Notes: generated by a model from the letters alone, not told the origin. 64,000 nt of DNA from a bacterium (GCA_021463465.1 JAJTYH010000003.1:211549-275548), one strand, 5' to 3'; shown: positions 24,301-57,926, counted from the first letter of the stretch. Numbers and translations are program-made.

Positions 24301-24325
24301 AGTATAATTAGAGTGTAAGTATCCT

Positions 24326-24615
24326 ATGCAGTTGCTGTTACAATTTATGTAGCAGAGGAAAGTCCGGACTTCATTTCGGCTTCGTATTAACGAAGTAAGT
24401 ACCTGTGCGAGCAGGGTGGGAGTAATCTCACGGATAAAAGGGCAACAGAAAGTATACCGCTATCGCAAGATAGTAAGGGTGAAAAGGTAGTGTAAGAGAC
24501 TACCGGTCAAATAGCGATATTTGATGCATTGCAACCCCTATTTGAAGCAAGATACAACAAGTATCGCTTAGACAGATAGCTGCATAAAACAGAATTCGGC
24601 TTATGGGATGCTTAC
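24326..24615 (+). ncRNA. rnpB: RNase P RNA (bacterial, compact)
   Basis: P4 5' strand GAGGAAAGTCCGGAC; AAGGGTGAAAAGGTAGTGTAAGAGACTACC (P10-P12 consensus-like); 3' ACAGAATTCGGCTTAT (P4 3' strand). Ends are approximate. Confidence 0.8.
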
Positions 24616-24617
24616 AT

Positions 24618-25355
24618 TTAGTCAACTTCAATATATCGAAACCTCTCGTACTTTTTTCCGTTTTTCAAAAAATCCGTAAAAAAGTTTGCTGAGTCAGTTG
24701 CTTGTTCTACTGAATATTGAGAAGAATGTTTTGCGTGTGCCTGTATTCTGGTTTCCAAGAAGTCCGTTACCTCTATGCCTAATGTATCCAGGTGATTGTA
24801 ATAATCAACTAATAAAAGCTTTGTACATTTTGCAGGTTTGACAACATTATTTAGTTGCTCAGGGAAGAAATTTCTATCCCTTGAATATGGATATGCAGCA
24901 TCAATCGCTAATAGTCCAGTGTTTTGATGGTCACGGTGATTTACCCAATTAATCCCTTGTTCAAACCTTATTATTTTGTCTTCCGGATTGTGAGTTACTA
25001 ATACATCAGGTTGGTATTTTCTAAAAATTCTGGCCAATTTACTAATATTATCAACCGTGTATTCAACAGAACCATCGCCCAAATCTAGGTAAATAGAATT
25101 ATTTTCTGAAACGCCTAATACTTTCATTGAGGCTAAGTCTTCGTCTTTTCGCAAATGTCTTAATTGATCTTCAGGTATTAGCTCATCTCTAGAGCCTTTG
25201 TTACCCAATGTCATTTTGACACTGACGACTTTTATACCAGCCTGGATAAGTCTTGCTATTGTGCCACCTGCATATAATTCAGTATCATCCGGATGTGCAA
25301 AGACGCAGATAACTGTTTTTGCACCATCAAATATTTTATTAAAACTGTCTTCCAT
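24618..25355 (-). CDS. PIG-L/LmbE-family N-acetylglucosaminyl deacetylase
   Basis: VFAHPDDTELYAGGT motif. Confidence 0.72.
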   Translation of the reverse strand: MEDSFNKIFDGAKTVICVFAHPDDTELYAGGTIARLIQAGIKVVSVKMTLGNKGSRDELIPEDQLRHLRKDEDLASMKVLGVSENNSIYLDLGDGSVEYTVDNISKLARIFRKYQPDVLVTHNPEDKIIRFEQGINWVNHRDHQNTGLLAIDAAYPYSRDRNFFPEQLNNVVKPAKCTKLLLVDYYNHLDTLGIEVTDFLETRIQAHAKHSSQYSVEQATDSANFFTDFLKNGKKYERFRYIEVD

Positions 25356-36420: not shown

Positions 36421-36432
36421 CATCGCGTTTAT

Positions 36433-36504
36433 GCCGCCATCGTCTAGTGGTTAGGACGTATGATTCTCAATCATAGAACCAGAGTTCGATTCTCTGTGGC
36501 GGCA
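36433..36504 (+). tRNA. tRNA-Glu (anticodon CUC)
   Basis: Cloverleaf: acceptor GCCGCCA/TGGCGGC, anticodon stem TATGA/TCATA with loop TTCTCAA, T-arm CAGAG-TTCGATT-CTCTG; no encoded CCA. Confidence 0.85.
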
Positions 36505-36537
36505 GGTTATCGATACTCCCCAGAAAGTGTAAAAGTT

Positions 36538-37164
36538 ATGTATTTTGATGATCTCGACTTCTTCAATCATGAGCGTCGTTTGACACGGAGTAAATTTGTT
36601 ACCGGAATTGTTGATTTCTGCTTTAATATTCATAACGCTCAGTTTAAGTCCAATGCTGAAGCATATATCGATAATAAGGGGGAGTTTCGAGTTGAGGATG
36701 TAATAGAGGATGAAGCTTTGCAGTATGCTTGGGAGTTTGATACTGTCGATGCATTTAAAAAGTCTCTGCTTACTGCACACGGAGTAATGAGAGGGTTGTG
36801 TGAGCTTCACGGTAAAGATTACGTTTACACTATTTCTAATTCTCTGCTGGAGTTTTGTGACGAACTTGAAGAGTTAAGTGCAGGTAGTAAATACCTTCTT
36901 GCTATGCCTGCGCTAGGTATAGCCTTTAACTCTCTAGATAAAAGAAAAGTTGCCTTGAGCAAAGGCGATAGTGTCATCAAAGCTATTGTGATTGCAAAGA
37001 AAACTATTCAAGCAGTTGTAGCATTATCTGGAATGAAGCATAATAATAGTGAATCTATGGCATTGACTATATTTAGTACGTATCTTGATTGGTTTAAATT
37101 ATCTGAAACTCTTGGGCTCAGTTATGAAGATAGACGTCCTTACGATCTTTCCAGAGCAAATTAA
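36538..37164 (+). CDS. hypothetical protein (3' end overlaps trmD by about 40 nt)
   Basis: 208-aa ORF starting after the tRNA; no recognisable motif. Confidence 0.35.
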   Translation: MYFDDLDFFNHERRLTRSKFVTGIVDFCFNIHNAQFKSNAEAYIDNKGEFRVEDVIEDEALQYAWEFDTVDAFKKSLLTAHGVMRGLCELHGKDYVYTISNSLLEFCDELEELSAGSKYLLAMPALGIAFNSLDKRKVALSKGDSVIKAIVIAKKTIQAVVALSGMKHNNSESMALTIFSTYLDWFKLSETLGLSYEDRRPYDLSRAN

Positions 37165-39681: not shown

Positions 39682-40986
39682 TTAATTTGCTGTTAAGTGA
39701 TTTTCGAGCTCCTCAATTTTTACTCTTACCTGTTCCATAGTGTCTCGATCTCTTACCGTTACGGTATTATCCTCTAAAGTCTGGTAATCAATGGTTATAC
39801 ATTTAGGGGTTCCGATCTCATCTTGATACCTGTACCGTTTTCCTATATTACCTCTGTCATCGTAAACTACTTTCAACTTCTTTCTAATTTGTGTGTAGAG
39901 TTCATGAGCCTTTTCAGTAATATCCTTTTTGTTTGCAACGAGTGGGAATATAGCGGCCTTGTATGCTGCAACATCAGGGTTGAGTTTTAGTACAGTTCGG
40001 GATTCGCCATTTTCGAGCTTCTCTTCTTCGTAAGCATCAAAGAGTAGGAAGAGGAAGGTTCGGTCAACTCCTCCAGAGGTTTCAACAATCCAAGGTAGGT
40101 ATTTTTCGTTGGTCTTAGGGTCTGTGTAAGACAGGTCTTTACCCGAAAATTTGGAGTGTTGTGTTAAATCATAATCTCCACGCCAGTGTATCCCTTCATT
40201 TTCAGCCCACCCCCAAGGGGTTTTGTATTCAATATCAAATGCGACCTTAGCGTAGAAAGCTAATTCATCTTCTGGATGTTGTCTGAATCTCAAGCTATCA
40301 TGTTTGCGGTAGAGATGCTTGAAGAAATTCATTCTCTCTTCTTTCCAGTATTCATACCATTTCTCCATTTCAGACTGATGAACGAAGAACTGGAGATCCC
40401 ATTGTTCGAATTCTCTGGCTCGGTAAAAAAGTTTGCCTGGGGTAATCTCATTACGAAATGCCTTCCCAATTTGTGCAATACCAAACGGAACTTGAACTCT
40501 TGAGGAATCAACTACGTTTTTGAAATCTAAATAGATAGTTTGGCAAGCCTCAGCTTTAAGATATGCTTCCATTTTTTCACCTTCCACTACACCTATTTCA
40601 GTCTTGAACATGAGATTGTACTTTTTAGGAGTGGTAAGTTCACCTTTACACTCAGGGCATTCCTTGGCAAAGTCGATCAAGTCAGGTCTGAATCTTTTGT
40701 GACACTTCTTACACTCAACCAATTGATCGTTGAAGTTTTTGATATGCCCTGATGCTTCCCAAACTTTAGGATGAGTGATGATAGTACCGTCTATACCTAC
40801 AACGTTATCTCGGTCGTCTACCATATACTTCCACCATAGTCTTTTGAGGTTGTTTTTCATCTCAACACCGACGGGTCCGTAATCAAAGAAACCTCCGACT
40901 CCTCCATAGATTTCGGAATTGGGGAATATGATCCCTCTGCGTTTAGCTAATGCGGTAATTTTTGCGAGCAAATCATTCTCTTGCAT
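39682..40986 (-). CDS. glyQS: glycyl-tRNA synthetase, α2 (eukaryote/archaea-like) type
   Basis: IFPNSEIYGGVGGFFDYGPVG N-terminus typical of dimeric GlyRS. Confidence 0.9.
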   Translation of the reverse strand: MQENDLLAKITALAKRRGIIFPNSEIYGGVGGFFDYGPVGVEMKNNLKRLWWKYMVDDRDNVVGIDGTIITHPKVWEASGHIKNFNDQLVECKKCHKRFRPDLIDFAKECPECKGELTTPKKYNLMFKTEIGVVEGEKMEAYLKAEACQTIYLDFKNVVDSSRVQVPFGIAQIGKAFRNEITPGKLFYRAREFEQWDLQFFVHQSEMEKWYEYWKEERMNFFKHLYRKHDSLRFRQHPEDELAFYAKVAFDIEYKTPWGWAENEGIHWRGDYDLTQHSKFSGKDLSYTDPKTNEKYLPWIVETSGGVDRTFLFLLFDAYEEEKLENGESRTVLKLNPDVAAYKAAIFPLVANKKDITEKAHELYTQIRKKLKVVYDDRGNIGKRYRYQDEIGTPKCITIDYQTLEDNTVTVRDRDTMEQVRVKIEELENHLTAN

Positions 40987-44249: not shown

Positions 44250-44265
44250 TACTCGTGTGACTTTG

Positions 44266-44513
44266 TGCTATAATCTCCTTGCAATGATAAGGAAAGAATA
44301 GGGCTAATCCATTGAAGTGAACTCTGTTAAGTGAAAAAGAGAAATGGAACTCATATTCTAAAGACCTTGAGCATCTGGAAGAAATCGCTTGCGAAAGTAG
44401 AACCAGACGTCGTCCTCACGACATAGAGGGAATGAGTAAAATTGAAGGTGGTACCGTGTTTATGACACCCTTCGTAAGTGATAGTAACCCTGTCATTTAC
44501 GAGGGGTGTTTTT
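44266..44513 (+). promoter_or_regulatory. T-box riboswitch leader (Lys) with promoter, antiterminator and terminator, upstream of lysS
   Basis: Extended -10 TGCTATAAT (44266-44274); T-box sequence AATTGAAGGTGGTACCGTG (44442-44458); antiterminator A1 GAAGG/CCTTC, 7-nt bulge TGGTACC, A2 GTG/CAC; overlapping terminator CACCCTTCGTAA/TTACGAGGGGTG + TTTTT (44466-44513). Confidence 0.6.
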
Positions 44514-44532
44514 AATTTTATTATTGACGACA

Positions 44533-46500
44533 ATGCAAGACTCACAAAGTTCACTTATCGGACAACGTTCAGGGAGACTTGAGAAGGTCAAGCGACTCCG
44601 AGAAATGGAGATTGACCCTTATCCCAGCGGATCTAAAAAGCAGGTAGCTAATTCTGAAGTAGTAAATGATTACGAAAAGTATAAAGACCAGAAGGTTGTC
44701 CTTACTGGCCGCCTTATGTCATGGCGTGAGCATGGGCACATCATCTTTGGTCATATTCAGGATGACAGTGGTAGGATTCAGCTTTATCTGAAAGATGAAG
44801 TATATCCGGTTAAAACCAGTAAGAATAAAATCGGTTGGAAGGATTTCGACCTGATTGATGTTGGTGATTTCCTCCAAGTTACTGGGACTGTCACTAAAAC
44901 TAATACAGGAGAAGTCTCTCTTTTGGTTGAAGCTATTGTTATTCTCACCAAAGCAATTAGGCCTTTGCCTGAGAAGTGGCATGGGATTGCTGATAAAGAG
45001 ATGAGGTATCGACGCAGATATTTGGATATGACGATGAATCCGGATGTGCGTGAGCGATTTAAAAGAAGATCTCAATTCTGGACAGCATTTAGGGAATTCA
45101 TGAACAAGAATGGCTTTTGGGAAGTTAATATCCCTGTACTTGAACATGTGACAGGTGGAGCTGATGCTAAACCTTTTGTTACTCACTACGATGCATTGGA
45201 TCAGGATTTCTACTTACGGATTTCGCATGAACTCCCTCTTAAAAGACTCCTAGGTGCGGGCTTTGAAAAAGTTTATGACATTGGAGCAAGATTCCGAAAT
45301 GAAGGCTTTAGTGATGAACATCTACCCGAGCATGTCGCCATGGAATTTTACTGGGCATATGCAGATATGGAAGACGGAATGAAATTCACCAAAGAAATGT
45401 TCCGATTCGTAATGGAAAAAGTTTATGGAAAGTTGAAGTTTAATGTTAAAGGTTTTGAGGTAGACTTGAGTAAGGAATGGGAGGTAATTAGTTATCCGGA
45501 AATCATTAGCGATCGATTCGGAATCGATGTATATTCAGAACCGATTGAAAATCTACGCAAGATTTTGCGTGAAAATGGTTTGGATTTAGGTAGTGGAGTG
45601 AATCGCAATAGGGCGATCGATAATCTTTGGAAGCTTATTCGTAAAGATATTGGAGGCCCAGCATTCATTACAAATGTGCCAAAGTTTCTTTCTCCGCTTG
45701 CTAAGTCAAATACGGAAAATCCTTTGTATACAGATCGATTTTTCTTACTAATTGCTGGAAGCGAGTTGGCTAATGCCTTCTCAGAATTGAACGATCCGGT
45801 CGATCAATTAGAGAGGTTTGTAGAGCAACAAGAAATTAGAGGGGGGGGAGATGAAGAGGCACAAATGATGGATATAGATTTTGTAGAAATGTTGGAGTGG
45901 GGCATGCCACCTGCGTTAGGCTTGGGTATTTCTGAAAGAGTCTTCTGGTACTTTGAAGATGTAACAGCAAGGGAGGGAGTTCCGTTTCCACAACTTAAGA
46001 GTGAAGTTGATACAAACACACAGAAAATATATTCCGACATTATGAAATATATTGATGAAGGAGTATTGGACGATAACCGAATTCAGGATTCAACTCGCAA
46101 GATTGTTGTTGTCATTGATGAAAAACTCAGGGGGTGGCAACTCGCTAACACAGTTGGTCACATCAGTGGGTATTTAGGAAACCATATTGAACATGACCAA
46201 TTCTTTACTCGAAAGCAATTCAAATTAAAAGATGCGTTAATTAATGCTAATTCACAGTATGCGATTGTCGTTTTGACGGCAAAACAGTCACAACTACATA
46301 AATTGCTTGACCAGGTCAGAGAGAAGAGATTAAAACATCTGGCGTATATTCAAGAGATGATTGATTATACGGATGATAATAAGTTGCAGAAAAGTGTAGA
46401 AAGTCAGAATCTGGCTGATGTAGACCTTTTAGGTGTAGGTATGTTTGGAACTAAAATTGAACTAGATGCTTTGACTAAGAAATTTAGCTTGCTTAAGTAG
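44533..46500 (+). CDS. lysS: lysyl-tRNA synthetase (class II) fused to a C-terminal PTH2/DUF2000-like domain
   Basis: OB anticodon-binding domain, class II motifs (FRNEG, GGGDEEAQMMDIDFVEMLEWGMPPALGLGISER); extra about 170 aa resembling PTH2 (KIVVVIDEKL...GH..., LLGVGMFGTKIELDALTKKFSLL). Confidence 0.85.
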   Translation: MQDSQSSLIGQRSGRLEKVKRLREMEIDPYPSGSKKQVANSEVVNDYEKYKDQKVVLTGRLMSWREHGHIIFGHIQDDSGRIQLYLKDEVYPVKTSKNKIGWKDFDLIDVGDFLQVTGTVTKTNTGEVSLLVEAIVILTKAIRPLPEKWHGIADKEMRYRRRYLDMTMNPDVRERFKRRSQFWTAFREFMNKNGFWEVNIPVLEHVTGGADAKPFVTHYDALDQDFYLRISHELPLKRLLGAGFEKVYDIGARFRNEGFSDEHLPEHVAMEFYWAYADMEDGMKFTKEMFRFVMEKVYGKLKFNVKGFEVDLSKEWEVISYPEIISDRFGIDVYSEPIENLRKILRENGLDLGSGVNRNRAIDNLWKLIRKDIGGPAFITNVPKFLSPLAKSNTENPLYTDRFFLLIAGSELANAFSELNDPVDQLERFVEQQEIRGGGDEEAQMMDIDFVEMLEWGMPPALGLGISERVFWYFEDVTAREGVPFPQLKSEVDTNTQKIYSDIMKYIDEGVLDDNRIQDSTRKIVVVIDEKLRGWQLANTVGHISGYLGNHIEHDQFFTRKQFKLKDALINANSQYAIVVLTAKQSQLHKLLDQVREKRLKHLAYIQEMIDYTDDNKLQKSVESQNLADVDLLGVGMFGTKIELDALTKKFSLLK

Positions 46501-46501
46501 T

Positions 46502-46807
46502 ATGGATTCAATACAGGATCTGATATCCCAAAAGCGTGAAGAACTTAAAGAAGGCTTATTGAAAAGGAAAAAACATATTACTACTGAACATCAGGATTAC
46601 GGTTACCGTTTGGCCTTAAAGCTTTGTGATATGGGTCATAAATCGTTGTACATGAAATTAGCTAAGGAGAAGCCTCGTGTGCTTTTGGAACAAGCTTTCA
46701 GTTTCGCGATTGACTATCCTAATGCTACGCCTAACAAAGGTAGACTTTTTATGTGGAAACTGAAACAATTAGAACAAGCAAATGGCAATACTAGTAAGCA
46801 ATCCTAA
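46502..46807 (+). CDS. hypothetical protein
   Basis: 101-aa ORF. Confidence 0.35.
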   Translation: MDSIQDLISQKREELKEGLLKRKKHITTEHQDYGYRLALKLCDMGHKSLYMKLAKEKPRVLLEQAFSFAIDYPNATPNKGRLFMWKLKQLEQANGNTSKQS

Positions 46808-47600
46808 ACAGTTCCTAAATGTCCTCTATCAGGAGATGAAGATGTATGTGAGCAGCGAGCTCGCATACCGTTGGCAGATTTTTGTATGGGTAATCTCAGA
46901 TGCTTTACAACCTTTGATTTTGGGTGTGGTGTGGGCGGCTGTTGCCAAAGAAGGAGGATTACTCTCTGTAAATCAAGTAATTACATATTTTTTTCTAGTA
47001 TCGGTTGTTTCCAAGTTGACCAAGGATTGGTCGGTTATTTATGTTAGTAATATCGTAGTATCGGGTGAGTTTTCTAAATATCTGGTAAAGCCATTTAATT
47101 ATTTAGCTGAAACGTTAGGTATCAGTTTGGGAGCAAGAGTGCTTAGGCTCTTAATGCTCGTACCCCTCTTAGGTATTGCTTACTTTGTACTCAAGGATTA
47201 CTTGGTTATTAATTGGGGTCATGATCGTTTTATGTTATTTTTAATTTCTTTGATTTTTGCATTCCTCATAAACTACCTCTTGGGTAATACTTTTGCATTG
47301 ATAAGTTTCTTTATTAACCAGATAGTTGGGCTTCGAACTTTCTATGAACACGCAGTGATTTTCCTCTCAGGTGAGGGTATCCCTTTGGTGGCTTTCCCCA
47401 GTTGGGCTAAATATTTCATTGAGATTTTACCTTTTCGTTATACTGTGTCATTTCCAATTGAGATCATTACAGGTTCAATATCAGGAAGGGAGATAGGTTA
47501 TGGCTTTGTGATTGCGGGATTTTGGATGGTAGTTTTAATAGTTCTCTATAAAGTGCTTTTCAGATTAGCTATAAAAAAATATGAAGCTTACGGTATTTAA
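46782..47600 (+). CDS. ABC-2-type transporter permease-like membrane protein
   Basis: 6 TM helices; pattern similar to the following paralogue. Confidence 0.4.
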   Translation: MAILVSNPKQFLNVLYQEMKMYVSSELAYRWQIFVWVISDALQPLILGVVWAAVAKEGGLLSVNQVITYFFLVSVVSKLTKDWSVIYVSNIVVSGEFSKYLVKPFNYLAETLGISLGARVLRLLMLVPLLGIAYFVLKDYLVINWGHDRFMLFLISLIFAFLINYLLGNTFALISFFINQIVGLRTFYEHAVIFLSGEGIPLVAFPSWAKYFIEILPFRYTVSFPIEIITGSISGREIGYGFVIAGFWMVVLIVLYKVLFRLAIKKYEAYGI

Positions 47601-48390
47601 AACGATAAAGTATTATTTGAATGTCTGGTGGGCTACATTTAAACTTAGCCTGAGTAAAGCAACAACCTATCGAATTGAAGTTGTGATGAGATTTCTGCGA
47701 GGAGTAATGCTTGTGGCTATTCAGATTATTTTCATCCAAGCAGTCATTGGAGACAGTGATAACATTGCTGGATGGAGTGAAGATCAGATGTATCTACTTT
47801 CTGGTGTTTTCAGTTTCATCAACTACATATCATGGGCCTTCTTCGCCATCAATCACTGGAGGATTGAAGAAAAAATTCTCAAAGGGGAGTTTGATGCTGT
47901 ATTGATGAAACCAATGTCTTCAATTTTCTCAGCTTCTTTCCCAGACTTTTTCATTGATGAAGCTATTACCGCTATCTCTGGAGTGTTTTTGATTTTGTAC
48001 TATGTCGCTCGTAATTTTACGACCTTAACTCTTGAGGGGACTGTCTTTGGAGTAATAGCTATGATTTGTGGATTTGTAGTTTGGTTTAGCCTTGAGCTTA
48101 TATTTGCTAGTTTTGACTTCTTACAAGTGAAGAATGGTTTGAGAGAGATTAAGAAAAATCTGACTAATGCAGGTCGATTTCCTCTTGAGATTTGGAATCC
48201 TAATGTACGTTTTGTCTTCTACTCACTTTTCCCAATTGCATTTGTTTCGACTGTTCCCGCTGGTTTAATTGCGGGTCTTTTTAACTGGCAGTACTTAGTG
48301 CTTTCTGTCTTAGTTACTTCCGTTCTTTTTCTTGTCGCTCGAACTTTTTGGAATCTTAGTATTCGTAATTATGCGAGTGGCGGAAATTAG
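47581..48390 (+). CDS. ABC-2-type transporter permease-like membrane protein
   Basis: 6 TM helices; tandem with the previous gene. Confidence 0.4.
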   Translation: MKLTVFKTIKYYLNVWWATFKLSLSKATTYRIEVVMRFLRGVMLVAIQIIFIQAVIGDSDNIAGWSEDQMYLLSGVFSFINYISWAFFAINHWRIEEKILKGEFDAVLMKPMSSIFSASFPDFFIDEAITAISGVFLILYYVARNFTTLTLEGTVFGVIAMICGFVVWFSLELIFASFDFLQVKNGLREIKKNLTNAGRFPLEIWNPNVRFVFYSLFPIAFVSTVPAGLIAGLFNWQYLVLSVLVTSVLFLVARTFWNLSIRNYASGGN

Positions 48391-49060: not shown

Positions 49061-49136
49061 CCATTGCGGACAATTTTGATATATAATCAGGATAAAAATG
49101 GTATATAGATTGAAATTAACATCACGCTCATCTTCA

Positions 49137-49162
49137 GGTCTGGCTTAACCAGACCACTTTTA
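49137..49162 (+). terminator. hairpin between HD gene and serS (terminator or leader structure)
   Basis: GGTCTGG-cttaa-CCAGACC followed by ACTTTTAC. Confidence 0.35.
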
Positions 49163-49207
49163 CGTATACCACAATTTCATATATACCTAATTTAATACAA
49201 AAGAGAG

Positions 49208-50476
49208 ATGATAGATATAAAATTGATTGTTGAAGATACACAGAGAGTAAAGCTGGCGCTTCTTAAACGCATGAAAGAAGAGGATATGCACCTATCTGAT
49301 ATTATTGAAGCATTCAATGTTAAGAAACAGCTTCAGGTAGACTTTGAAGATTTGAGAGCTAGGCAGAAAAGTTTCAACGAGTTGATGGCTAAGACAAATA
49401 AGAGTACTCCTGAATTCAAAAAGCAGCTGGAGCAACTCAAGGGTTTAGCAAATGAGGTAAAAGAGGTTGAGGAGAAGCTCAAAGAAGCGGATCTTAAACT
49501 CACCAGCTTGGTTGAAGTCTTGCCTAACATGCCTGACGAAGATGTTGTGGCTGGGGAGAAGGAGGCCAATAAGGTCGTAAAGACTTCAAGTAAGACTCCA
49601 GATTTTGATTTTGAGGTTCGAGATCATTTGGATGTAGCCAAAGGTGTTGGTATTTTAGACATGGACCGAGCGGCTAAGATTGCAGGCGCTAGCTTTTCAA
49701 TGTTTATTGGTAAAGGGGCACAGCTTGAATGGGCACTGCTTAACTATTTCATTGGCGAACATATAAAGGACAATTATACGATGGTTCTTCCTCCGCATTT
49801 GCTTACCGAAGCTTCTGGCTATACTGCTGGTCAACTTCCAAAATTCAAAGAGGATGTGTACTGGGTACAGGATGGTAACTTCTTGTTGCCAACAGCAGAG
49901 AGTGCTTTAGCGAATTTATATCGTGATGAGACTTTGCAGGAATCTGAACTTCCTAAGAAACTTTTTGCATATACTCCTTGTTATAGACGAGAAGCCGGAA
50001 GCTATAGAGCTAACGAACGAGGATTGATGCGAATGCACCAATTCAATAAGGTTGAGATGTTCCAGTACACTTTGCCTCAGTATTCAGAAGCAGCCTTGGA
50101 AGAATTGGTTGAAAAAGCTACTAGATTGGTTGAAGGCTTGGGTCTTCATTACAGAGTCACTCAACTAGCTGCAGGTGACTGTTCAGCAGGTGCCGCTAAA
50201 ACCTATGATGTGGAGGTATATCTTCCATTCTTAAAGACATACTATGAAGTGAGTTCGATTTCCAATGTAAGAGAGTATCAATCAAGACGAGGTAATATCA
50301 AATACAAACCAACCGACGGAGGAAAACCAGGATATGTTCATATGCTCAACGCTTCTGGTTTAGCCACCAGTAGGTTAATGGTTGCATTACTTGAAACATA
50401 TCAGAATAAGGATGGATCAATTACTGTTCCTGAAGTGCTTAGGCCATTTACCGGTTTTGATAAAATTGAAAAATGA
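49208..50476 (+). CDS. serS: seryl-tRNA synthetase
   Basis: N-terminal coiled coil plus class II core (e.g. RREAGSYRANERGLMRMHQFNKVE). Confidence 0.92.
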   Translation: MIDIKLIVEDTQRVKLALLKRMKEEDMHLSDIIEAFNVKKQLQVDFEDLRARQKSFNELMAKTNKSTPEFKKQLEQLKGLANEVKEVEEKLKEADLKLTSLVEVLPNMPDEDVVAGEKEANKVVKTSSKTPDFDFEVRDHLDVAKGVGILDMDRAAKIAGASFSMFIGKGAQLEWALLNYFIGEHIKDNYTMVLPPHLLTEASGYTAGQLPKFKEDVYWVQDGNFLLPTAESALANLYRDETLQESELPKKLFAYTPCYRREAGSYRANERGLMRMHQFNKVEMFQYTLPQYSEAALEELVEKATRLVEGLGLHYRVTQLAAGDCSAGAAKTYDVEVYLPFLKTYYEVSSISNVREYQSRRGNIKYKPTDGGKPGYVHMLNASGLATSRLMVALLETYQNKDGSITVPEVLRPFTGFDKIEK

Positions 50477-57822: not shown

Positions 57823-57832
57823 TCCAAAACAT

Positions 57833-57906
57833 CGGGGTGTAGTTCAGATGGCTAGAATGCTTGCATGGGGTGCAAGAGGTCGCACGTTCAAGTCGTGTCA
57901 CCCCGA
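57833..57906 (+). tRNA. tRNA-Pro (anticodon GGG)
   Basis: Acceptor CGGGGTG/CACCCCG, anticodon stem CTTGC/GCAAG with loop ATGGGGT (G37), T-arm GCACG-TTCAAGT-CGTGT. Confidence 0.8.
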
Positions 57907-57926
57907 AAATATTCAATAAAATTCTT

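Follow-up and report, generated by a model that had tools for sequence, protein, structure and literature searches.

Does the leader of lysS, the lysyl-tRNA synthetase (LysRS) gene, contain a T-box riboswitch in a genome of the Candidate Phyla Radiation (CPR) and, if it does, is this T-box built like those already known? The question was raised by an earlier note on a 64,000-nucleotide (nt) stretch of bacterial DNA (GCA_021463465.1, JAJTYH010000003.1:211549-275548; this whole stretch is called the window hereafter), which described the 283-nt intergenic leader upstream of lysS (44250-44532) as a canonical, lysine-specific T-box of the terminator type. The T-box call is borne out by a significant match to the Rfam model, by the presence of the modules and by covariation in relatives, and the lysine specificity and mode of termination by an AAG specifier, the LysRS gene downstream and a terminator of 20 base pairs (bp). 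The lysS leader is thus very probably a transcription-attenuating T-box riboswitch, with tRNA-Lys as its presumed ligand. It is not canonical, however: its score is below the 93-bit Rfam cutoff, the base of its helix A2 is a G-C and not a G-U pair, its AG bulge reads AGUGA, and the Stem III helix is missing. Because of this last feature I file the leader as a variant, a T-box without Stem III in a lineage from which T-boxes have not been described.

Detection was based on the Rfam T-box covariance model (RF00230), which was run on the leader and on the 64-kb window at its gathering score (93 bits) and then with E-value reporting. No T-box was reported at the gathering score. With E-value reporting, positions 44275-44475 matched the full length of the model with a score of 44.9 bits (E = 8.5e-9 when the leader alone is searched, 1.2e-6 over the 64 kb), and this was the sole RF00230 match within the window. 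The covariance search proposed in the earlier note therefore gives a significant E-value but a score under the cutoff; the 93-bit gathering score serves as a working threshold and does not define a T-box structurally. A loose motif scan of the window revealed no further leader-like UGGNACC core. The two other aminoacyl-tRNA synthetase (aaRS) genes, glyQS (39682-40986, minus strand) and serS (49208-50476), were both confirmed as genes, and their leaders, read directly, displayed no T-box features, so that lysS is, as had been claimed, alone among the three in having a T-box.

Relatives of the leader were sought in two ways. Comparison of the 160 closest listed lysS loci (80 species-representative and 80 metagenomic), nearly all from CPR bacteria (Saccharibacteria, WWE3, Dojkabacteria, Collierbacteria) and at most 59% identical, gave no T-box core upstream of lysS in any of these more distant loci. 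A search of protein collections yielded closer LysRS-DUF2000 proteins (55-64% identity), whose leaders were taken from their contigs. Homologous leaders were found at loci L161, L162 (=L163), L164 (=L165), L166, L167, L168 and L169, together with two more distant ones, L172 and L174; three other closer lysS genes (L170, L171, L173) have no T-box. The relatives score 50.9-67.1 bits with RF00230 (E from 1e-8 to 1e-12), all below 93. The clade to which the window belongs thus comprises eight leaders, the window included, six of which are clearly diverged (LysRS 58-64% identical).

An alignment of these eight leaders, with a mean column identity of 78%, was used to examine 40 base pairs belonging to the base and the distal helix of Stem I, the lower and upper helices of Stem II, Stem IIA and the terminator. 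A standard pair was present in 96.2% of the cells, as compared to 37-51% in controls slid by 1-3 columns, and both sides had changed in 18 of the 40 pairs, as compared to 1-4 in the slid controls; none of 500 shuffles reached the observed values. RNAalifold independently recovers the distal helix of Stem I, Stem II, IIA and the terminator, with compensatory changes at 14 of 37 pairs. With the raw MAFFT alignment as input, RNAalifold failed to recover the lower helix of Stem I and the middle one, and each Stem I was therefore folded separately. The pairing that it proposed on the same alignment between the CCU following the specifier and the 5' strand of helix A1 is spurious, since indels misalign this region. 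Conservation and covariation of the modules are thus directly established. By the evidence of the aligned sequences, the RNA of the lysS leader is under selection for the T-box fold, because the specifier, the pairing, the pseudoknot and the terminator are conserved with covariation.

The antiterminator and the terminator were found where the earlier note had placed them (Table 1). The former has a 7-nt bulge of the UGGNACC type between helices A1 and A2, and its sequence is invariant in the clade; in L172 and L174, A1 is CAAAG/CUUUG, which amounts to two compensatory changes. As had been pointed out, the UGGU of the bulge is complementary to the tRNA 3' end ACCA and fits a discriminator base A73, so that a tRNA-Lys with A73 is predicted. 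Bacterial tRNA-Lys generally has A73. The replacement of G-U by G-C in the basal pair of A2 has a precedent in streptococci (PMC11404447). The terminator (CACCCTTCGTAA...TTACGAGGGGTG and T5) has a longer hairpin than had been claimed and a predicted stability of -27.2 kcal/mol (z-score -8.3), and none of 200 shuffled sequences folds as well; 6 of its 20 pairs have changed on both sides in the relatives and 7 on one side only. Its 5' arm, which starts with CACCCUUCGUAA, is made of the 3' strands of A2 and A1. The terminator and the antiterminator, which share strands 44466-44473, therefore exclude each other.

Taken alone, the antiterminator of the window is weak (-7.5 kcal/mol for its minimum free energy (MFE) fold, -3.5 kcal/mol in the canonical register), and in all leaders a terminator of -17.8 to -32.2 kcal/mol overlaps an antiterminator of -0.8 to -3.5 kcal/mol. 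The proposal that the two folds should be thermodynamically competitive turns out to be the wrong yardstick: the antiterminator (-3.5 to -7.5 kcal/mol) is far weaker than the terminator (-27 to -32 kcal/mol), as is normal for T-boxes, and the energy gap is no refutation because in T-boxes uncharged tRNA supplies the stabilization of the antiterminator.

The position of the terminator also helps to decide between transcriptional and translational control. In the latter case an alternative fold would hide the ribosome-binding site, as in actinobacterial ileS leaders, an idea to which the frequent lack of a clear Shine-Dalgarno sequence in CPR leaders and the fact that reduced T-boxes are known mainly from translational cases lend some appeal. 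Yet the 20-bp hairpin and its U-run end 20 nt upstream of the lysS start codon (ATG), leaving the start region uncovered, a hairpin followed by a U-run is present in all relatives, and Stem I is long and not ultrashort. A translational T-box is therefore hardly conceivable here, and transcription attenuation is the reading retained in what follows.

Transcription is predicted to start at about position 44281, at the base of Stem I, downstream of an extended -10 element that lies where the earlier note had located it; a promoter consensus scan missed this element for want of a good -35 hexamer. Either TGNTATAAT or a TATAAT-like box is found at an equal distance upstream of Stem I in L161, L164, L166-L169 and L172. 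Above the kink-turn-like (k-turn-like) motif of Stem I come, in order, the AAGG/CCUU helix, the specifier loop, the middle helix and the distal platform for the tRNA elbow. The k-turn is lacking in L162 and L166-L169, which have an extended helix instead, as do about 29% of T-boxes (PMC11404447). Both elements of the distal platform, the AG bulge and the distal loop, are conserved: all eight leaders of the clade read AAGUGA, and L172 and L174 have AGAGA. The helix that closes the distal loop covaries (CUCU/AGAG, CCUC/GAGG, GCCUA/UAGGU, GCCUU/AAGGC). An alternative distal helix in the window, UCUGUU/AAUGGA, was rejected, the homologous helix being CUCU/AGAG.

The specifier loop presents the Lys codon AAG followed by a purine, upstream of a gene encoding LysRS. 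All 10 distinct leaders, that of the window and nine homologous ones, have AAG, and the base that precedes it is A, C or U. Folding of Stem I thus yields the Lys codon that the earlier note expected, but at another place. The A-rich segment GTGAAAAAGAGAAA, from which AAA or AAG was to be read, corresponds to the distal loop and the 3' strand (AGAG) of the distal helix; GUGAAAAAGAGAAA, proposed as the specifier region, is likewise made of the distal loop and a helix strand; and the AGAGA taken for a k-turn-like motif is a helix strand as well, the AG bulge being AGUGA. At position 2342 of L167, a C replaces the conserved purine that follows the specifier (AAGCCC); this may be a genuine exception or else a mistake in the assembly.

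Could the specifier be read in another frame or by another tRNA? The window sequence UAAAGACC contains both AAA, which tRNA-Lys(UUU) would read in the -1 frame, and AGA, which tRNA-Arg would read in the +1 frame. AAA is moreover the usual Lys specifier (PMC7778990), and cross-induction by tRNA-Asn has a precedent in the Bacillus cereus lysK T-box, which also responds to this tRNA (PMC2916919). In the relatives, however, the -1 frame reads CAA or UAA, the AAGCCC of L167 breaks AGA but keeps AAG, and the canonical arrangement of codon, purine and helix gives AAG; the regulated gene, for its part, is lysS. A different frame or a different tRNA is accordingly very improbable. As to the anticodon that would read AAG, UUU may do so through wobble.

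Downstream of Stem I come an S-turn-bearing Stem II and the region of the IIA/B pseudoknot (44408-44430), modules that most T-boxes other than the glycine ones possess. The AAGAA...GUAGAA of Stem II is invariant, and both-side changes affect three of the five pairs of its lower helix and two of the three pairs of its upper helix. All relatives have in common a IIA stem of 3 bp and a loop of 7 nt, and this fold was preferred to a wider IIA helix that can be drawn in the window (GUCGU/ACGAC). The IIB complementarity amounts to 4-7 bp in each of the eight leaders and is achieved with differing sequences (UCCUC/GAGGG, AUAACUU/AAGUUGU, ACUU/AAGU, AUACU/AGUAU, GACUA/UAGUU, GCUU/AAGC), a summed length that none of 5000 shuffles reached.

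The region between the 3' strand of IIB and A1 differs from that of known T-boxes. In the eight leaders of the clade it is a linker of 13-16 nt with an MFE of 0.0 and the consensus (U/A)A(A/U)GAG-U(U)-AAAA. The purine flanks of Stem III are retained (RRxGAG and AAAA; AUGAG and AAAA in the window), but they are joined by one or two U. The counterpart in L172 is 49 nt long and forms two hairpins (-11.7 kcal/mol), and that in L174 includes a Stem III of 7 bp between GAAAG and GAAG. When L172 and L174 are included in the alignment, the window's clade is gapped over 34-41 columns at Stem III, and in the Rfam alignment the Stem III positions shrink from [17] to [1]. A tiny, AU-only Stem III such as UUAA-GAG-UUAA in L164 was considered and discarded: it is not conserved (L161 and L162 lack it), and no stability is predicted for it. 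Since both outgroup leaders and the T-boxes of the literature have Stem III, the parsimonious reading is that it was lost within the window's clade.

Several observations weigh against the assignment of the leader to the T-boxes. Its 44.9 bits fall short of the RF00230 gathering score of 93; it has no Stem III helix; the S-turn consensus (AGUA/GAA) is unrecognisable in the specifier loop; the specifier is AAG, whereas AAA serves in more than 85% of Lys T-boxes, themselves among the rarest (PMC7778990); and ARAGORN found no tRNA-Lys gene in the window or in 174 loci, the anticodon CUU and A73 being predicted for the lineage.

The most serious of the competing explanations follows from the second of these points. 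Stem III and its flanks (5'-RRRxG-Stem III-AA-3') have been reported to be an integral and indispensable part of the discriminator, necessary for its binding to tRNA (PMC7583486). The leader might then be a decayed T-box that no longer senses tRNA and works as a constitutive leaky attenuator, or that is regulated by some other factor, for instance a protein or the level of nucleoside triphosphates; the low stability of the isolated antiterminator in the canonical register and the subthreshold Rfam score would agree with this. However, the bulge, AAG, the AG bulge, the distal loop and the S-turn elements of Stem II are invariant while the helices changed in a compensatory manner, so that bulge, specifier and paired helices have all outlasted Stem III in the eight leaders. 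The Stem III purine flanks, which are reported to contact the tRNA-bulge duplex (PMC11404447), have been kept too, and a second CPR family, upstream of argS, has the same layout devoid of Stem III with a matching Arg codon. Decay is consequently an improbable explanation, if less so than a change of frame, and a working tRNA-Lys T-box is preferred.

The T-box is proposed to operate as follows. Transcription would start from the extended -10 promoter that lies a few bases ahead of Stem I, whose specifier loop would offer AAG to the tRNA-Lys anticodon (predicted to be CUU) while its distal platform would stack on the tRNA elbow; the codon-anticodon duplex would be buttressed by the S-turn of Stem II and the IIA/B pseudoknot. 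If the tRNA is uncharged, its 3' ACCA would pair with the UGGU of the bulge and stabilize the weak A1/A2 antiterminator, allowing read-through into lysS. If it is charged, the 20-bp terminator would capture the 3' strands of A1 and A2 and transcription would end in the U-run, 20 nt short of the lysS ATG. In the window's branch of this family of lysS leaders, which belongs to a Dojkabacteria subclade, the Stem III helix of the discriminator would have been deleted and its purine flanks left in place. The modules and their mutually exclusive folds are directly established; from them I infer the binding of tRNA, its identity, the response to charging and a discriminator that works without Stem III.

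Table 1. Coordinates of the lysS leader modules and of the genes downstream (window numbering).
Feature	Position	Strand	Basis
Extended -10 promoter element TGCTATAAT	44266-44274	+	Sequence
Stem I	44281-44372	+	Rfam alignment, single-sequence fold; relatives fold alike separately
Stem I base pairs GC/GC	Stem I base	+	Rfam alignment
k-turn-like GA motif	AAUGA 44283-87 with GA 44369-70	+	Rfam alignment
Helix below specifier loop	AAGG 44289-92 / CCUU 44365-68	+	Rfam alignment, fold
AG bulge AGUGA (consensus AGAGA)	44316-44320	+	Aligned to RF00230 AGAGA
Distal helix CUCU/AGAG	44322-25 / 44338-41	+	Covaries
Stem I distal loop GUUAAGUGAAAA	44326-44337	+	Aligned to RF00230 GgUUGGUGaaA
Specifier AAG, with purine A44364, directly 5' of CCUU strand	44361-44363	+	Rfam alignment position
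Stem II	UCUGG 44374-78 / CCAGA 44403-07 (44374-44407)	+	Rfam alignment
Stem II S-turn elements	GAA 44381-83, AGUA 44396-99	+	Rfam alignment
Stem II apical hairpin UCGC-UU-GCGA	within 44374-44407	+	Rfam alignment
Stem IIA, 7-nt loop CGUCCUC	CGU 44408-10 / ACG 44418-20	+	Recovered by RNAalifold
IIB pseudoknot	UCCUC 44413-17 with GAGGG 44426-30	+	Complementarity kept in relatives
Purine-rich unstructured linker AAUGAGUAAAAUU, 13 nt, in place of Stem III	44431-44443	+	MFE 0.0
T-box sequence AATTGAAGGTGGTACCGTG	44440-44458	+	Sequence
Antiterminator, loop UUUAUGA	44444-44473	+	Sequence, Rfam alignment, fold
Helix A1 GAAGG/CCUUC	44444-48 / 44469-73	+	Sequence, fold
T-box bulge UGGUACC, 7 nt	44449-44455	+	Sequence, Rfam alignment
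Helix A2 GUG/CAC	44456-58 / 44466-68	+	Sequence, fold
Intrinsic terminator, 20-bp hairpin (44465-44509), then UUUUU (44509-13)	44465-44513	+	Fold
lysS, class II LysRS, 655 amino acids (aa)	44533-46500	+	Pfam tRNA_anti-codon, tRNA-synt_2, DUF2000
101-aa open reading frame (ORF) and two ABC-2 permease genes (ABC2_membrane_6, PF06182)	46502-48390	+	Pfam

What does this leader control, and in which organism? The gene context and the lineage are directly established. The LysRS ends with a C-terminal DUF2000 domain (PF09391, E = 2e-21; residues 523-655, window 46099-46497); an identical 655-aa LysRS is present in the database, and MCC7290153.1, encoded on a 452,990-bp contig, is a near-identical cluster member. 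The DUF2000 fusion is widespread in CPR LysRS proteins (most of the top 120 matches), and some other relatives carry HD, tRNA_bind or B3_4 domains instead; a PDB sequence search with the DUF2000 tail gave no match. The closest named homologues of LysRS and of SecY (63-71% identical for the latter) belong to Candidatus Dojkabacteria / candidate division WS6, and the contigs that bear the T-box are those whose SecY is 82% identical. By these protein comparisons, the host genome is in Candidatus Dojkabacteria (WS6), and hence in the CPR, in keeping with the CPR-like genome that had been suspected. The expectation that the T-box would inform on the affinities of the lineage fares less well: absent from 160 of 160 distant and from three closer lysS loci, it says little about them because it is patchy within the CPR. 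Vertical retention with loss and lateral transfer are both possible origins.

No second LysRS gene is present in the 64-kb window, and the host probably has a single LysRS. The only tRNA genes of the window are those for tRNA-Glu(CUC) (36432-36505) and tRNA-Pro(GGG) (57832-57907). Both are "extra" isoacceptors, so that this small genome has more than a minimal set of tRNAs, and since tRNA-Glu(CUC) indicates that C34 isoacceptors exist in the genome, tRNA-Lys(CUU) is plausible. Both Lys codons are in use, with 328 AAA and 279 AAG in 17 long ORFs. The listed ORF 36460-37164 overlaps the tRNA-Glu gene, and its 5' end is probably not real.

Control by the T-box might extend beyond lysS. The gap between lysS and the 101-aa ORF is one base, there is no convincing terminator between the genes, and the gene order downstream of lysS is kept in L162, L164 and L166-L169 (in L161 it is broken up, and L172 and L174 do not have it). 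The three genes that follow lysS are possibly co-transcribed with it, which would place a membrane transporter under Lys T-box control; no ATPase gene adjoins the two ABC-2 permease genes. In L166, L167 and L168 (2515-2988) and in L169 (2519-2992), the Lys T-box is separated from lysS by a 157-aa ORF which, because of this location, would also be under tRNA-Lys control. The ORF of L166 gave no Pfam match; its N-terminal sequence (MEIERKW...) is reminiscent of CYTH-domain proteins.

Other RNA folds and Rfam matches were encountered in the window. For the serS leader (49088-49210), a long hairpin (GGUAUAUAGAUUGAAAUU...AAUUUCAUAUAUACC) with a GGUCUGG/CCAGACC cap is predicted, downstream of a TATAAT box (49082-87). 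This hairpin (-22.7 kcal/mol, z-score -3.2; none of 200 shuffles folds as well) may be a different regulatory structure. A shortened bacterial class A RNase P RNA lies at 24316-24618 (176.7 bits): model segments of 39 and 24 nt are cut to 2 and 0 nt, and a 13-nt segment has grown to 28. A match at 372-474 to RF03531 (n00280, a small RNA of Clostridium difficile inside a helicase gene; 52.2 bits for a cutoff of 65.2, E = 7.8e-6) is probably explained by conservation at the coding level, because it falls within the ORF 9-569.

If T-boxes of CPR bacteria are miniaturised yet functional, with a discriminator that dispenses with Stem III, and if the Dojkabacteria AAG case controls what is probably the sole LysRS, a housekeeping one, a twofold proposition that the sequences at hand favour slightly, this would contradict the view that Stem III is found in all T-boxes and is indispensable, as well as the view that T-box control is unsuited to a housekeeping LysRS, to which this leader is a candidate counter-example. 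The leader extends tRNA-sensing T-box regulation to the CPR, in which regulation has been described as virtually unknown (PMC11665869), and shows that the 93-bit Rfam cutoff hides CPR T-boxes scoring 33-67 bits. The Stem III helix, which structural work found to be needed for binding of the tRNA 3' end, is missing from a lysS clade with clear purifying selection and covariation, and from the argS family as well; this constitutes a natural experiment on the T-box discriminator, and the resulting RNAs would bear on the minimal aminoacylation sensor. Such a leader might also serve, as a native regulatory part with a defined ligand, in the genetic tools that are emerging for Patescibacteria.

How, then, does the lysS leader compare to known T-boxes? 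With class I T-boxes (RF00230), such as that of Bacillus subtilis tyrS, it shares the order of modules from Stem I to the overlapping terminator, the location in an aaRS leader and a specifier that matches the gene. It differs from them by the lack of a Stem III helix and of a recognisable S-turn in the specifier loop, by the G-C pair at the base of A2, by AGUGA, by its 44.9 bits for a cutoff of 93, and by its host, a CPR bacterium and not a Firmicute. Published T-boxes come from Firmicutes, Actinobacteria, Chloroflexi, Deinococcus-Thermus and two Proteobacteria (PMC2494555), and a non-exhaustive literature search found no report of T-boxes or native riboswitches in CPR, Patescibacteria or Saccharibacteria.

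T-boxes that control LysRS are known from four species among 891 genomes, always beside a second LysRS without T-box (Foy et al. 2010, PMC2916919), and the same authors suggested that T-box control may be unsuited to the housekeeping LysRS (PMC2916919). As compared by description only, these T-boxes, namely those of B. cereus / B. thuringiensis lysK, Clostridium beijerinckii lysS2 and Symbiobacterium thermophilum lysS, share with the window a Lys specifier upstream of a LysRS gene; there is a second LysRS in their hosts and probably only one here. Counterparts that retain Stem III are the uncultured L172 and L174 (LysRS 55-57% identical), which have in common with the window the LysRS-DUF2000 fusion, the AAG-A specifier, the UGGUACC-GUG core, the arrangement of Stem II and IIA/B and the terminator. 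They differ by a 7-9 bp Stem III with its RRRxG and AA flanks, by AGAGA, by the CAAAG/CUUUG sequence of A1 and by higher Rfam scores (67 and 60 bits).

Natural loss of T-box modules has a precedent in the actinobacterial ileS leaders (class II, ultrashort Stem I), in which Stem II and the pseudoknot take over part of the recognition of the tRNA. There, the distal half of Stem I was lost, Stem III was kept and control is translational; in the window, by contrast, Stem I is long, Stem III was lost and control would be transcriptional.

A parallel to the loss of Stem III is offered by the argS T-boxes of Collierbacteria-type CPR genomes (L008, about 1040-1205; L099, 981-1135; L014, L093, L096, L097 and L098), in which lysS follows argS. 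They consist of a k-turn and a helix of 5 bp whose terminal loop is GUCGCGA (CGC is an Arg codon), of a 20-22 nt unstructured linker ending in ...AAAGAG-UAU-GG before A1, and of a strong terminator with a U-run, and have neither Stem III nor a distal platform; Rfam detects one of the seven (32.5 bits). The strong terminator and U-run argue that they are transcriptional, despite an ultrashort Stem I known mainly from translational T-boxes. They differ from the lysS leader by this ultrashort Stem I, by a specifier located in the terminal loop, by the gene and by the much shorter leader, but share with it a CPR host, an aaRS target, a specifier that matches the gene, the absence of Stem III, the AAGAG purines before A1 and the terminator.

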